Shown one piece after another: positions 9 to 12,342 of a stretch of DNA of 45,156 bases (positions are counted from its first letter, which is position 1; each line of letters begins with the position of its first letter). The stretch spans positions 1-45,156 of the forward strand of contig JAWOEX010000027.1 of assembly GCA_046482545.1 (NCBI GenBank), in the 5' to 3' direction. Position numbers and translations under genes: made by a program. The stretch comes from Candidatus Thorarchaeota archaeon. GTDB taxonomy: Archaea; Asgardarchaeota; Thorarchaeia; Thorarchaeales; Thorarchaeaceae. The notes beneath the pieces were generated by a model that saw nothing but the letters and a program-made list of their open reading frames with translations, was not told the DNA's origin and did not search any database.

Positions 9-575
9 ATAACGAAAATCTTACAGATTCATAAGAAATCCGAGTAAAAAAAGTGTAAAACAAATGTAAGACTTCCTGCAAGTGCTGTTGTGACTGAAGG
101 CGGTATGACTTTATTAGGCCCAGTATGAGACCTGATTTCAGTAGGACTAGGCAAGTGGGCTAGTGTTAAACACGACGCACGCGGCCGAAAGCTGTGAGGT
201 GGACTCGTTCCACTAAGCAGAAGTCCCCACTCTCCACACAAAGGGCTTCATCAAGCCCTGGAGAGTCCGCGGCTGTTCACCTTGTCTGTAATGGGCCATC
301 TCGGCGGCGGTGACAATGTTGAGGTGGGTGATCATGACCACGCCGTGGTAAGAACTGTGGAAAGCCTCACTGTCGCCGGAATGATGACCCGGGACAAGGA
401 CAGGAGTAAGAAGCCAGGACCGCGGGAGGAATCCCATTCCTGTGAACGTGGACAAAGCCCCTGCTGACTCACGGGCCTTCGGGTACCGTGGGGGCGGCGA
501 CGCTGGCAGGGGAAGGGTGGAACACAGAAGTTTCCTCAGTTGGGTTCACTCACTCAACTGTAAGAAATGGGTTAT
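9..575 (+). mobile_element. Non-autonomous ~570-bp element (copy 1) carrying a structured-RNA-like interior
   Basis: Starts ATAACgaaaaTCTTACAG (9-26) and ends CTGTAAGAaatggGTTAT (558-575), an imperfect 18-bp inverted repeat. Flanked by direct repeat CTGGA (4-8, 576-580). Colinear homolog on the opposite strand at 2272-2828. Strand given is the inferred RNA-sense strand. Confidence 0.85.
111..560 (+). ncRNA. Putative large structured RNA inside element copy 1 (family unknown)
   Basis: Helices GTGAGG(194-199)/CCTCAC(365-370), GTGGA(199-203)/TCCAC(209-213), CACGG(470-474)/CCGTG(486-490) capped by c-UUCG-g, and CCCCTGCT(458-465)/GGCAGGGG(505-512). Several covary in copies 2 and 3. G-U pairs and UUCG/GAAA loops work on this strand. 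Boundaries approximate. Confidence 0.65.
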
Positions 576-3054
576 CTGGAGAACTTGATTGACAAAAACA
601 ATGAAGGATTCTCTCTTCAACTTTCGGGAGCCTGTATACTACAGAATAACACCTTCATCGACGATGCTTTGTCAATCCAGGGCCGAGCGAAGAGCAATTG
701 GGAGCACTCAATCCTAGGAAATACAATTGATGGAAGTCCGCTTGGTTACTTCCTAAGGGAAAATGATACAATCATACACGCGAGTCAATATGGACAGATT
801 ATTCTTGTTAGCGCTAACGGAACAAGAATAAGTGACGAAACATTCCAAAACAAACCCAGAGGAATCGTTCTTGCATACTCTGAAAATTGTAGATTGGTGA
901 ACATCACTGTTGCGGAATCGCAATCGAACGGTTATAGTCTCTACTCTTGTGCAAACTGTACCCTCGAGAACTCTACAGCAATTCAAAATGCAGGACATGG
1001 CGTCTACTCAAAATATTCGCCCTCCTGTGGATTTGCCAACAATAACGCCAGTAGTAACTCGGGGCATGGTTTCGTTCTGTTTCATTCTGAGAAATCTTCA
1101 ATCGTCAATAGCAGGATTGGAGCGAACTCGGAACAGGGAATAGAACTAGTCCATTCATCAAATTGCATCGTCGAAAATAACACCTTGAAAGACAACTCGC
1201 TAATGATAACCGGCATTAACGGGAGTTGGATGCATAACATATCTGGCAACACGATAGATGGAGCACAGCTGGGATACTTCAGGGGAATCACGAATAGAGC
1301 GTTTGATGCTGACGAGTTTGGGCAACTGATTCTTGTCGATTCCCATGGTGTTATAGTGGAGGATGGTGTTTTGAACAAGACTTGCGGCGGTATTCAACTG
1401 GCCTATTGCACACAAGTCACAATAACGAGAGTCACAGTAATCGGAAGCTCGACTCGTGCATTCTTCCTGTGGCACACTCTCAGCGTCACGCTATCTGACA
1501 ATGTAGCCGCTGACTGTAGAGGCGATGGGTTTGTCCTTGCCTCAGGCACAGGATGTTCATTCCTGAGAAATACTGCCAACGGGAATGAGGGAAATGGCTA
1601 TTTTCTCGGATTGCCCACTGGTTGTGTGCTCGCGGACAATGCTGCCCTTGATAACGGTGACTCTGGGTTTGTAACGAGGTTTGGCAAGAGTTGTACTTTC
1701 GACGGTAATACTGCTGGTACGAACGTGAATGACGGATTCGATGTGTCTGCCTCAGAAACTCTGATCACACGGAACGAAGCTCATGGGAATGGGAGAGATG
1801 GCTTTCATCTCAGTATATCTGATAGCGATGTTATGAAAAATGTGGGTACAGAGAATCAAAGATATGGAGCATATTTGGATAGTGAAAGCTATGGGAATCT
1901 CTTGTTCCTGAACCGGTTAGGGTTCAATGGCATAGCTGATGCTATAAATAACGGACATGCAACCCTCTGGCACAACGACGTTTTTGGGAATTATTGGGGC
2001 GCATATGATGGGCGTGGTACTTATTCTGTACCTGGAGCAGAGGAAAGCATTGATTTTCATCCCTACGAATACTATCGTGCTTCTCCTGTTATAGGCCATC
2101 CAGATGACATCTCCTACTCCTATGAACCGAATGGAAATGGAACTGCCCACGCAATTATTTGGAGAGCTTGGGATTGGGGTCATACCGCTTACCGCATATG
2201 GAGAGACTCTGCTTTGGTTTCGGCAGCCACTCTTCATGGATCGCATATCATTATCCATGAGATCTATCGAGATAACCTGTTTCTTACAGTTGTAGTAACT
2301 GTCTGAAACCTCTGTGTTCCACCCTTCCCCTGCCAGCGTCACCGCCCCCAAGGCTACCCAATGGGCCCTTGAGTCAGCAGGGGCTTTGTCCGCGTTCACC
2401 GGAATAGGATTCCTCCCGCGGTCCTGGCTTCTGTCTCCTGCCGTTGTCCCAGCACATCACTCCGGCGACAGTGAGGTTTTCCACAGTGCTTGCCACGGCG
2501 TGGTCATGATCACCCACCTCAACGTTGTCACCGCTGCTGAGGAGGCCCATTACAGACAAGGTGAACAGCCGCGGACTCTCCAGAGTTCGATGAAGCTCTT
2601 ACGTGGAGAGTGAGGACTTCTGCTTAGAAGGGCGATCCTTCCTCACAGCTTTCGGCCGCGTGCGTCATGAGGGATCACTAGCCCACTTGCCTAGTCCTAC
2701 TGGACCGGGGTTTCGCACTGGGACTAATAAACTCCCCACTGGGGTGATAAGAATCGTTGCAAGAAATCTTACAGATATTTTACACTTTTCCCCTCGGATT
2801 TTTTAGGATTATTGTAAAACTTGGCTATTCGAGAATTAACTCCTGGTGTTTACAACTATACTGTTGTTGTCACGGACGAAGAAGAAAATTCAATCAGTGA
2901 TACGGTATCCGTGACTATTGAATGGCCTGAGGGATACGAACCTGGGATTTTTAACTCAATAGATGTCCACCTCCTATTGACCGTTGTAGGGGCAGTTTCT
3001 GCGGTAGTTGTGATAGCCGTACTTGCTGTGGAAGGTTTTGAGAAACGAAGTTGA
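576..3054 (+). pseudogene. Right-handed beta-helix (NosD/pectin-lyase-like) cell-surface protein with C-terminal Ig-like domain and TM anchor, interrupted by two insertions; 5' part lies upstream of the window
   Basis: ORF 567-2306 has PbH1-type N/G-rich repeats, a duplicated GNTIDG.LGYF...GQ.ILV module and a GNYW motif. ORF 2821-3054 continues with PGVYNYTVVVTD...DTVSV, a hydrophobic helix and KRS. Deleting 2272-2833 gives in-frame HEIYR-ELTPGVYNYT; deleting 9-580 gives F-L-E-N-L-I-D-K. Confidence 0.85.
2272..2828 (-). mobile_element. Non-autonomous ~560-bp element (copy 2), inverted relative to copy 1
   Basis: On + it begins ATAACctgttTCTTACAG (2272-2289) and ends TTGTAAAActtgGCTAT (to 2828). 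Flanked by TCGAG (2267-2271, 2829-2833). Aligns end to end with the reverse complement of 9-575. Confidence 0.88.
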
Positions 3055-3250: not shown

Positions 3251-3516
3251 ATGACTGCTGAACACACTATAAGAAAAGTGCCAACAGATCGGAAGGAGCG
3301 CGTTGGCTGGTAGTTGTATGATTCTTGCAAATACAAGCTTCACAGTGTTGATAGTCACAGCCCTGTTCCCGCTTTTCTTTCGTCTTTTGGTCGGAAATGA
3401 GACGCTTGGAGACGCTATGTGGGGGTATGCTGGAAGTATAACGATGATAGTTATCGCATTGAGCTCGCCGGTGCTGGGTGCGATAGCCGATTTTGGAGGA
3501 TTGAAGAAGAAGTTCA
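3251..3516 (+). pseudogene. N-terminal remnant of a UMF1/ATG22-like MFS transporter
   Basis: ATG 3251 reads MTAEHTIRKVPTDRKERVGW*LYD, then a frameshift into LANTSFTVLIVT..FP.FF...SPVLGAIAD.GGLKKKF, the typical family N-terminus. In-frame stop, frameshift and truncation. Confidence 0.7.
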
Positions 3517-3683
3517 CTTGGAATATGACGTTCCATTCGCGGTGGAATAGCCAGCTAAGATGGAGGGTTCTACCCTCTTTCTCTATTTTTCCTTCCTTTC
3601 TCAGTTATATTTATCACTACTACACCACAAGAGACCACTTGACTGAGCAGTAATCAGATAATTGCGGAAAGGATAGACATATC

Positions 3684-10275: not shown

Positions 10276-10725
10276 GTGGCACGTATTCACAATCAGACGC
10301 CGCTCATGTTATGTGTGCTGGGCGGCATCTTGATAGTCTTCTCGGGATTTAGCGGCACAATAGGCTTTATTGGGGGCGTGGCATATGGCTTCGACGAACT
10401 ATTTGGTCCAGACGGTGTTCTCACTCTGGAAATAATGGCGGGAATCCTAGCGATATTCACCGTACTTGGCGGAATAGGAGTGATAACAACGGGCTTTGTT
10501 CTAACTACTAAATACGTTCGTCAAGCGAGAATGGCAATAACAGTTTTCGTAGCGATGACTATTTCTGGTCTCGTAGTGACACTGGCCAATTTAACGCTGT
10601 CTGGACAATTTGCGATGGGGCTTATGTTCCAATTCATGCAGTCCCTTGGATGGTTAGGTGCCACACTCGCAGTTGTCGCTCGAATAATCTCTCAACAGAA
10701 ACCTATTATTTCACCATCCACTTAG
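10276..10725 (+). CDS. Hypothetical 4-TM membrane protein
   Basis: 149-aa hydrophobic ORF 2 nt after the permease stop. Confidence 0.7.
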   Translation: MARIHNQTPLMLCVLGGILIVFSGFSGTIGFIGGVAYGFDELFGPDGVLTLEIMAGILAIFTVLGGIGVITTGFVLTTKYVRQARMAITVFVAMTISGLVVTLANLTLSGQFAMGLMFQFMQSLGWLGATLAVVARIISQQKPIISPST

Positions 10726-10799: not shown

Positions 10800-11096
10800 C
10801 TGTGTCCACGGTGATTTGAATGGTATCCATCCCGCGGCCCTAGTTTCTGTATCCTGTCGGGTTCCTGGGTCATCACTCCGGCGACAGCGAGGCCTTCCGT
10901 GAAGAAGCACATGTCTTCCTCGCAGCTTTCGACGACATGCTTCGTGTCACAGCACTAGGCCACTTGCCTAGTTCTGATGGAACGGGGTTCCGTACTGGAA
11001 CTAATAACCTCGCCCGTTTTTGGCCCTTAGAAGACTTGCAGGAATTCTTACATTTTTCTAAGCTGATTATTTAGCATTCTGAAATATTTTTGTTAT
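10800..11096 (-). repeat. Compact/diverged third copy of the structured element
   Basis: Shares GTCCACG..CCCGCGG.CCT.G.TTCT, CATCACTCCGGCGACAG.GAGG, CAGCTTTCG, CACTAG.CCACTTGCCTAGT.CT, ACTGG.ACTAATAA and TTGCA.GAA.TCTTACA with copies 1 and 2. Ends GTTAT (11092-11096) followed by TCAGG. Lacks ~140 nt internally; no recognisable other terminus. Confidence 0.85.
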
Positions 11097-11386: not shown

Positions 11387-11989
11387 CTAGGAAGGGGGTG
11401 ACCTGGCGATCTTGATAGCTTTGGCAAAAAGGAAAGATCTCAAATGGAGTTCGTCGTTGGTTATAGTGGTCTTCAGACGATTATTGTCTACCGAGAACCC
11501 ATGACGTAAGGCGACGTTTTTCAGGCGAGGTGATATTATCTCTGAACTCTTTAGCTTGTAGTTGAACCATTCATCGGGTGAATCACCGCGAATCCTGCAT
11601 TTGAGTTGGATATCCACATCCTCTAGAGTAACGTTGAACTTCTTGCCAATCTGGTGACGTATGGGCGTATTTCGTCCGAAAACCCCATGTAGGACTGATT
11701 CTGTGTAATCGACTGCTGGAGCTGGTAGGAAAGCCCATGACCAGAATGCATAGCCGAAGAACAAAAGTGCACAAGCTAGGAAAAAACCGACAGTGTTGTA
11801 GGAGACCACAACTTCGAGACCTTCCGCCCAACCAGGTGGAACCCAGTCGGGAGGAGGGGTATCAAAGCGGTAAATACCCGGACTATAGAACAAGTAGAGT
11901 GTAACACAGAAGACGGCTATTGATGCTGCTAGCGCAAGACGTTGTCTGTCTATGTATAGGCCCCGTGCACGTTCAAGGAGTCTGTTCAT
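11387..11989 (-). CDS. Hypothetical membrane protein (2 TM plus soluble domain)
   Basis: Long ORF with two hydrophobic helices. ATG at 11989 follows a GGAGG and overlaps the upstream gene's stop; the ORF track extends it to 12049. Confidence 0.65.
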   Translation of the reverse strand: MNRLLERARGLYIDRQRLALAASIAVFCVTLYLFYSPGIYRFDTPPPDWVPPGWAEGLEVVVSYNTVGFFLACALLFFGYAFWSWAFLPAPAVDYTESVLHGVFGRNTPIRHQIGKKFNVTLEDVDIQLKCRIRGDSPDEWFNYKLKSSEIISPRLKNVALRHGFSVDNNRLKTTITNDELHLRSFLFAKAIKIARSPPS

Positions 11990-12342
11990 CAGCTTTCCTC
12001 CAGCGAATTGAGGTAGAGCTCGCGTGCTGTCTCTCCATACTCTCGACACATTTTCACCAGCACCTTCAAGAGGGGGTGCTCGTTGTTGATGCGTATAGCA
12101 TAGAGTCTAGGTGTTAACTCATCAACCATGATTAACTCGTCCTCTTGGAGACGATCCAGGACCCCTCTGTACAGGCTCCTCGATTTTCCGCTGTAGCCGA
12201 TGAGTCGACTGAGCTGAACTCCACTGACGCTCCGCGGATAGATGTGGGCCAGTGCCAAGAGGATAGCCCGTTTTGTTTGATTCAACGAAGACATCAATTG
12301 GATGACCTCGTAAGCGGAGCGAAGCATATCCTCATCATCCAA
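11989..12342 (-). CDS. Winged-helix DNA-binding protein (putative regulator)
   Basis: LNQTKRAILLAL....SVSGVQLSRLIG.S....LY..VL.RL....LI wHTH-like pattern. Confidence 0.6.
   Translation of the reverse strand: MDDEDMLRSAYEVIQLMSSLNQTKRAILLALAHIYPRSVSGVQLSRLIGYSGKSRSLYRGVLDRLQEDELIMVDELTPRLYAIRINNEHPLLKVLVKMCREYGETARELYLNSLEES

Follow-up and report, generated by a model that had tools for sequence, protein, structure and literature searches.

The interior of the repeated elements in the window (the whole stretch of 45,156 nucleotides that was analysed) is a real structured RNA which, judged from its sequence, works like a TnpB omegaRNA and on most of the tested features is one. With a probability of roughly 0.88 we assign it as the TnpB omegaRNA of Thorarchaeota aCas1 transposons, carried on gene-less derivatives, and we extend this assignment by a model of loading in trans. 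In this model, to which we give somewhat better than even odds, one large scaffold would be used in two modes, as an omegaRNA in cis and as a tracrRNA for a single leader crRNA repressing its own promoter, and promoter-bearing mini-copies with or without an anti-repeat loop would tune the system in trans.

A total of 96 HMM matches of the element were detected in the 3.05-Mb genome, where a preliminary description of this DNA had counted three copies, and the scaffold resides on gene-less mini-transposons in about 60 to 90 genomic copies. The window contains the following elements and flanking features:

9-574, + strand: copy 1, complete non-autonomous (MITE-like) derivative of an aCas1-TnpB transposon, 566 bp (end alignment, parent comparison)
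3-8, + strand: target duplication left of copy 1, TCTGGA, equal to 575-580 (direct reading)
575-580, + strand: target duplication right of copy 1, identical to 3-8
9-81, + strand: left end of copy 1, common to the 8.3-kb parents, imperfect terminal inverted repeat (TTACA at 21-25)
54, 65 and 77, + strand: three TGYAA motifs in the left end of copy 1
110-116, + strand: TATA-like box of copy 1
2273-2828, - strand: copy 2, complete derivative, 556 bp (end alignment)
2267-2272, - strand: target duplication of copy 2, TCTCGA on the - strand, twin at 2829-2834
2829-2834, - strand: target duplication of copy 2, left-end side
2725-2731, - strand: TATA-like box of copy 2
2697 down to 2272, - strand: scaffold of copy 2
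10800-11096, - strand: copy 3, decayed, left end present, internal deletion of about 150 nt, right end missing (HMM match)
575-3054, + strand: host gene, NosD/beta-helix surface protein with C-terminal membrane anchor

The window copies are composed of the left end, a linker with the TATA-like box, the scaffold and the right end. Like MITEs, they have both ends of an autonomous partner, lack an ORF, occur in many copies and are flanked by a target duplication. When the flanks were aligned, both ends of the element proved conserved, with an imperfect inverted repeat, and each was bordered by a hexamer TCNNGA. Left and right hexamers were identical in 21 of 37 end-to-end elements, compared to 3.8 (maximum 11) with shuffled flanks; alternatively, the outer T and A could be element ends, leaving a duplication of 4-5 bp. 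The left-end repeat and the TGYAA motifs are putative transposase binding sites. Each base of the TATA-like box is present in 26-29 of 30 mini-copies at a fixed distance of about 28 nt before the scaffold, and the box is a putative promoter of the mini-copies' own. The linker (82-143) had no BLAST match in two parents. Copy 1 lies in sense orientation at the 5' part of the NosD/beta-helix gene and copy 2 is inserted antisense; excision of copy 2 together with one hexamer restores the reading frame through to the membrane anchor. ORFs near the copies at 3303-3653, 10276-10725 and 11387-12049 of the window are without Pfam match.

The parents were found by pairing element ends over longer distances. 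Two of them, C20 (8226 bp) and C28 (8297 bp), have exact duplications, as does one of 7.6 kb from a sister genome; in their ends and in the kind of 6-bp duplication the parents agree with the window copies. Their TnpB of 545-560 aa (in L001 encoded at 569-2203, - strand) matched the guided_TnpB family with an E-value of 4.8e-26 and a score of 91.9, just below the NCBIfam cutoff of 100. It contains a zinc finger and a rearranged RuvC triad, in which the aspartate of RuvC-I is kept, the glutamate of RuvC-II is replaced by glycine and an alternative glutamate occurs in 120 of 120 homologues checked; the same rearrangement of RuvC-II is described in the main text of PMC10691335.

Head-to-head with tnpB, mostly at a distance of 260-310 bp, lies a gene for a large protein of 1,400-1,650 aa. 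By sequence it matched nothing in Pfam, NCBIfam and PDB, and Foldseek returned weak Cas1 rows only. In the structural model, residues 18-275 adopt a Cas1 fold: the top 12 VIA hits were all Cas1 or casposase (Z 8.8-12.8), among them 8flj_A with Z 12.8, an rmsd of 3.9 and 177 aligned residues. The model further suggests a RecA-type fold (Z about 11) and, more weakly, a Cas4/RecB-like nuclease fold (Z 7-8). Named homologues of this protein come from Thorarchaeota, bar one with a Lokiarchaeota label. No RT, HUH or IS110 protein was found in the parents, nor a DEDD recombinase partner as in IS110 bridge RNA systems. A family B DNA polymerase was absent from the ORF lists of two complete parents and from Pfam and NCBIfam scans of one; coverage of the large protein's C-terminal half past the RecA fold was slight. 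Small ORFs differ between parents, e.g., L001:2867-3541 (+), 224 aa, without Pfam or NCBIfam match, and L002:6824-7444 (-), 206 aa. At G000:C28:1097-2656 lies a third tnpB, divergent (46% identity) and accompanied by a Cas1-like gene of its own; this tnpB has a different scaffold, and its leader unit matches a promoter over 13 nt.

From position 144 onwards, the whole of copy 1 aligns with the parents, covering their final ~85 tnpB codons and their right end. The interior is thus placed as an omegaRNA by its position, since in 35 parent loci it overlaps both the tnpB 3' end and the element's right end. At about 430 nt the scaffold has roughly twice the size of usual TnpB omegaRNAs. Its elements are as follows:

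144-575, + strand: TnpB omegaRNA (reRNA) scaffold, ~430 nt (parent alignment, fold)
144-148/222-226, + strand: 5' helix of the scaffold
335-339, + strand: pseudoknot loop TGACC, pairing with the terminal 570-574
537-560, + strand: terminal hairpin; 530-534 pairs with 564-568
576-595, + strand: predicted cis guide in the host flank (boundary deduced from leader units and pseudoknot)

The preliminary description had proposed a single-stranded fold under selection, possibly an omega-like guide scaffold, with the + strand of copy 1 as the folded strand, and this is supported. In 62 sequences, 18 of 136 proposed pairs covary (E<0.05), and in 35 parent loci with a mean identity of 71% it is 12 of 141, in both cases against a tree-based null, which is our own R-scape-like implementation, the kin not being independent. 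Covarying pairs include 200/212, 285/295, 286/294, 309/314, 423/448, 459/511 and 468/492 in window numbering. The + strand folds better than its reverse in copy 1 (z -2.3 vs. -1.2) as well as in the alignment (-184 vs. -144 kcal/mol for the reverse complement). The paired segments quoted earlier (199-213/2627-2641, 470-490/2349-2371, 242-259/2582-2599, 2692-2726/10969-11003 and 537-560/2287-2302) were all retrieved, as were the UUCG loop at 477-482 and the GAAA at 187-190, and an Rfam search matched no family, either at the gathering threshold or at E<=10. Two of the proposed helices fared less well. The long-range helix 194-199/365-370 holds for mini-copies (70-100% per pair) but not family-wide, as two of its six pairs are formed in only 6% and 17% of the parents, and its counterpart in copy 3 is in fact a local hairpin left by the internal deletion. 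The hairpin at 2692-2726, likewise not family-wide, covers the TATA-like box in a part upstream of the homology with the parents, and copy 1 has mismatches in it. Its 3' arm is paired with 222-226 instead, in 93-100% of all sequences. Among mini-copies alone, two parent lineages are mixed in blocks, and this mosaicism accounts for much of what looks like covariation; the module at 149-186 stems from lineage A or B whatever the origin of the remainder.

Candidates discarded on the way were group I and II introns, RNase P and other Rfam RNAs, for which no covariance model matched; RNase P had been prompted by P4-like words. Retroposition had been suggested by many 5'-truncated matches; the commonest start (model position 95) coincides with the start of the parents' homology, and no RT was found.

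The conserved fold ends in a 3'-terminal pseudoknot ahead of a variable guide. Relatives show compensation in this pseudoknot (TGATC/GATTA, AGACC/GGTCT), double changes having occurred in two or more lineages, and it matches the TnpB-type 3' pseudoknot (PMC13639567). The guide is therefore expected just beyond the element end. For the guide of copy 1 (576-595) no TAM-flanked target was found in its own genome, nor any convincing target of the flank guides in general: only 2 of 191 off-site 11-mer matches had a TAM-like flank. At the critical position of the TAM, a motif deduced here, T was present in 0 of 42 empty insertion sites. In the left flanks of 42 elements of G000 the third base before the hexamer is never T (A 20, G 14, C 8); it is at this base that the deduced TAM requires T. 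At the mirror position on the right side T is not excluded. Flank guides should therefore not cut empty sites, unlike those of standard TnpB, and the usual TnpB role of cutting the empty site is not supported by these sequences. The missing T might reflect either a preference of the integrase or avoidance of self-cutting.

A second guide appears to be encoded upstream of tnpB. Of 49 tnpB leaders, 45 contain a repeat whose end resembles the right end and, after it, a stretch that matches the promoter of the very same locus, with the target 64-66 nt upstream of the leader repeat. The guide of this crRNA-like unit comprises 12-15 nt. At least 12 of 13 nt matched in 86% of the cognate pairs, compared with 2% of the non-cognate ones, and identity is at least 0.91 at positions 1-12 and at background after position 15; one promoter background comparison drew on 80 sites, a crude set. 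In front of the target stands (C)TTAAT, and position -4 is T in 45 of 45 cases. The leader repeat is complementary to one arm and the loop of the terminal hairpin:

537-551, + strand: anti-repeat arm and loop of the terminal hairpin in copy 1, duplex with the parent leader unit -26.8 kcal/mol

Cognate duplexes between leader repeat and anti-repeat average -19.3 kcal/mol versus -18.05 ± 0.26 kcal/mol for permuted ones, again among kin that are not independent, and compensations are visible in L012, L034, L041 and L055. Computationally, pairing of an anti-repeat with a separate crRNA is thus present as in TranC. Copy 1 retains the anti-repeat loop; in copy 2 the terminal hairpin is shortened, the loop is lost and the duplex with the leader reaches -14.6 kcal/mol. 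No CRISPR array with several spacers was found: strict-pattern matches in 86 genomes were single units, never in tandem, and viral contigs contained none. Taken from these patterns, the scaffold probably also acts as tracrRNA for tnpB self-repression. A leader-like unit at G000:C38:60510 (-), without tnpB behind it and without matching promoter, is probably a relic. The terminal pseudoknot strand looks degenerate in L005, L040 and L044, so the scaffold there might work only with the leader crRNA.

On these grounds the following course is proposed. In the parents, a protein with Cas1 fold, Cas4-like and RecA folds is encoded head-to-head with tnpB; the Cas1-fold protein would move parents and, in trans, mini-copies into TCNNGA sites. 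The RNA, whose fold is borne out by covariation, forms the 3'-terminal pseudoknot and would in cis take the host flank as guide. For loading in trans, the leader unit would invade the terminal hairpin via its loop and supply the pseudoknot strand together with the 12-15-nt guide to the tnpB promoter. With a guide of seed length TnpB may bind without cutting, resulting in negative feedback on its own promoter. Most single mini-copies would be passengers with an inherited fold; those keeping the loop, e.g., copy 1, could add scaffold for repression, and loop-less ones, e.g., copy 2, could titrate TnpB. The earlier idea of a scaffold for the mobilising enzyme would then hold as far as the guide scaffold is concerned and fail for the partner, as the RNA is predicted to serve TnpB and the Cas1-fold protein to mobilise.

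The main competitor, which we consider doubtful, is an omegaRNA acting in cis only; the leader unit would then never pair with the scaffold but represent either a duplicated promoter or a self-contained hairpin. The leader can indeed self-fold, a TATA box lies within its guide, some 25 nt ahead of the ATG, the distance of a leaderless promoter, and the anti-repeat loop, kept in 33 of 67 right ends, is absent from the other 34. The promoter identity, however, begins sharply after a fixed motif and does not stop at the TATA box (positions 11-14: 3.2/4 vs. 1.15/4). Leader repeats co-change with terminal hairpins within loci, and the ATG is preceded by a Shine-Dalgarno-like GGCGA/GGTGA, which points to a leadered mRNA. 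The leader guide may be a second promoter as well. A slightly less probable view has the mini-copies under selection as guide-RNA cassettes that address targets of their own or regulate the host, in line with the conserved, correctly spaced TATA-like box, the full scaffold in 31 of 35 short end-to-end elements and a double change at 200/212 found in mini-copies only. Against it stand the scarcity of TAM-like flanks at off-site guide matches and the pattern of substitutions: singletons of mini-copies amount to 0.40 per paired versus 0.43 per unpaired column and break pairs in 63%, and variants shared exclusively among mini-copies break pairs more often than they keep them (12 vs. 9). Shared variants in general keep pairs more often (66% vs. 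37%, p 1e-4), largely because they derive from the parents. Single mini-copies thus seem to decay near-neutrally, and the compensations would mostly record selection in the autonomous elements.

That the large RNA additionally serves the Cas1-type transposase, as a bridge-like target or donor guide or as a scaffold, appears improbable. It would explain the extra domains and fit the unusual length, the hexamer's tendency to be common within subfamilies and the recurrent target sites in relatives, tRNA genes included; yet flanks beyond the hexamer are not shared, and elements lacking 140-400 internal bases keep both ends, one of them with an exact duplication (C10, 280 bp). Hardly credible at all is a self-splicing or self-cleaving ribozyme that rescues interrupted genes in the manner of an IStron. 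Size, helix density and copies inside genes were in its favour, but no Rfam intron or ribozyme matched even at E 10, genes are hit in both orientations (three ORF-interrupting insertions antisense, copy 2 being antisense in its host gene, and two sense), and the RNA starts about 135 nt inside the element and therefore could not remove the left end. Together with the missing RT, HUH and IS110 proteins, the insertions in both orientations also speak against the RT-template, ssDNA-intermediate and bridge-RNA readings offered initially.

The designation aCas1 reportedly goes back to Makarova et al. in 2020. The transposon type as such, which we place with aCas1-TnpB, is already published: aCas1-TnpB loci of Asgard archaea were presented as Cas1H-Asgard-1/-2 (Altae-Tran et al., 2023; PMC10691335), and the main text of that paper agrees with our elements in the Cas1-like protein beside TnpB, the flanking repeats, the Asgard host and a conserved GTTCACTCA motif downstream of tnpB, which was found here, too. 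It suggests that the variable stretch 5' of this motif may be the guide; in our elements, by contrast, this stretch corresponds to the anti-repeat arm, and the guide would come after the pseudoknot strand, at the end of the element. This main text contains neither mini-derivatives nor the TCNNGA duplication, the fold or a leader crRNA. The putative self-targeting leader crRNA and the dual use of the scaffold were absent from the literature searched, and among papers available without subscription none was found on a Thorarchaeota TnpB transposon or on TnpB autoregulation with reRNA.

TnpB omegaRNAs of IS200/IS605 elements (ISDra2 type) likewise overlap the tnpB 3' end and the right end, carry a 3'-terminal pseudoknot and have a guide beyond the end, a T-rich TAM-like motif and a ~12-nt seed. 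Unlike these, the present scaffold measures ~430 nt, belongs to elements without Y1 or serine TnpA that have inverted-repeat ends and a target duplication, faces empty sites without the deduced TAM and has a detachable crRNA-like 3' part. In TranC, as summarised in PMC13639567 and PMC13565253, the reRNA is split into tracrRNA and crRNA (Jin et al., 2025); the system studied here resembles it, computationally, in a TnpB scaffold usable with a separate crRNA, and differs from that summary in that no CRISPR array was found, a single leader unit targets its own promoter and the transposon is of Cas1 type, not IS605/IS607. Matches of 11-15-nt guides to the effector's promoter, implying repression without cutting, are shared with Cas9 tracr-L and crRNA-like autoregulators (bioRxiv 10.1101/2023.03.03.530964) and TldR repressors (PMC10705468), but tracr-L and TldR are CRISPR-Cas loci or nuclease-dead domesticated proteins, and the TnpB described here is mobile and apparently catalytically intact. 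With casposons the parents share a Cas1-fold integrase, inverted ends, target duplication and tRNA targets in relatives, and they differ in TnpB as cargo and in that no family B polymerase was detected. Casposon target duplications are longer than the 4-6 bp seen here.

For the aCas1-TnpB of Asgard archaea, a guide RNA together with its boundaries and a candidate TAM have now been identified, which makes these nucleases directly testable and argues against the published guess of guide location. If the leader circuit is true, it would represent a pre-CRISPR, tracr-L-like feedback loop inside a Cas1-type transposon, tuned by dozens of mini-copies; Cas1, a Cas4-like nuclease, a Cas12 ancestor, a tracr-like RNA and a crRNA-like unit would coexist in one array-less transposon, and RNA splitting may first have served self-regulation, not defence.

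Relatives of the element occur in 17 of 24 other genomes of the same family, and none were found in the other families searched. Inverted element pairs 1-2 kb apart are frequent, as in the window, and head-to-head, nested or tandem copies were observed at G000:C20:181317-182443, C41:25041-25599 and C9:359460-359777. At G000:C28:231812 (-) the right end carries a terminal hairpin that is apparently inverted. The same downstream flank recurs across different genomes for the right flanks of L035, L042, L048 and L050, for L026 and L053 and for L020 and L021, which suggests site-specific subfamilies or old shared insertions. Parents in relatives often end beside tRNA genes (right ends of L005, L040, L044, L052 and L075), with further tRNA matches for L036, L045 and L050.
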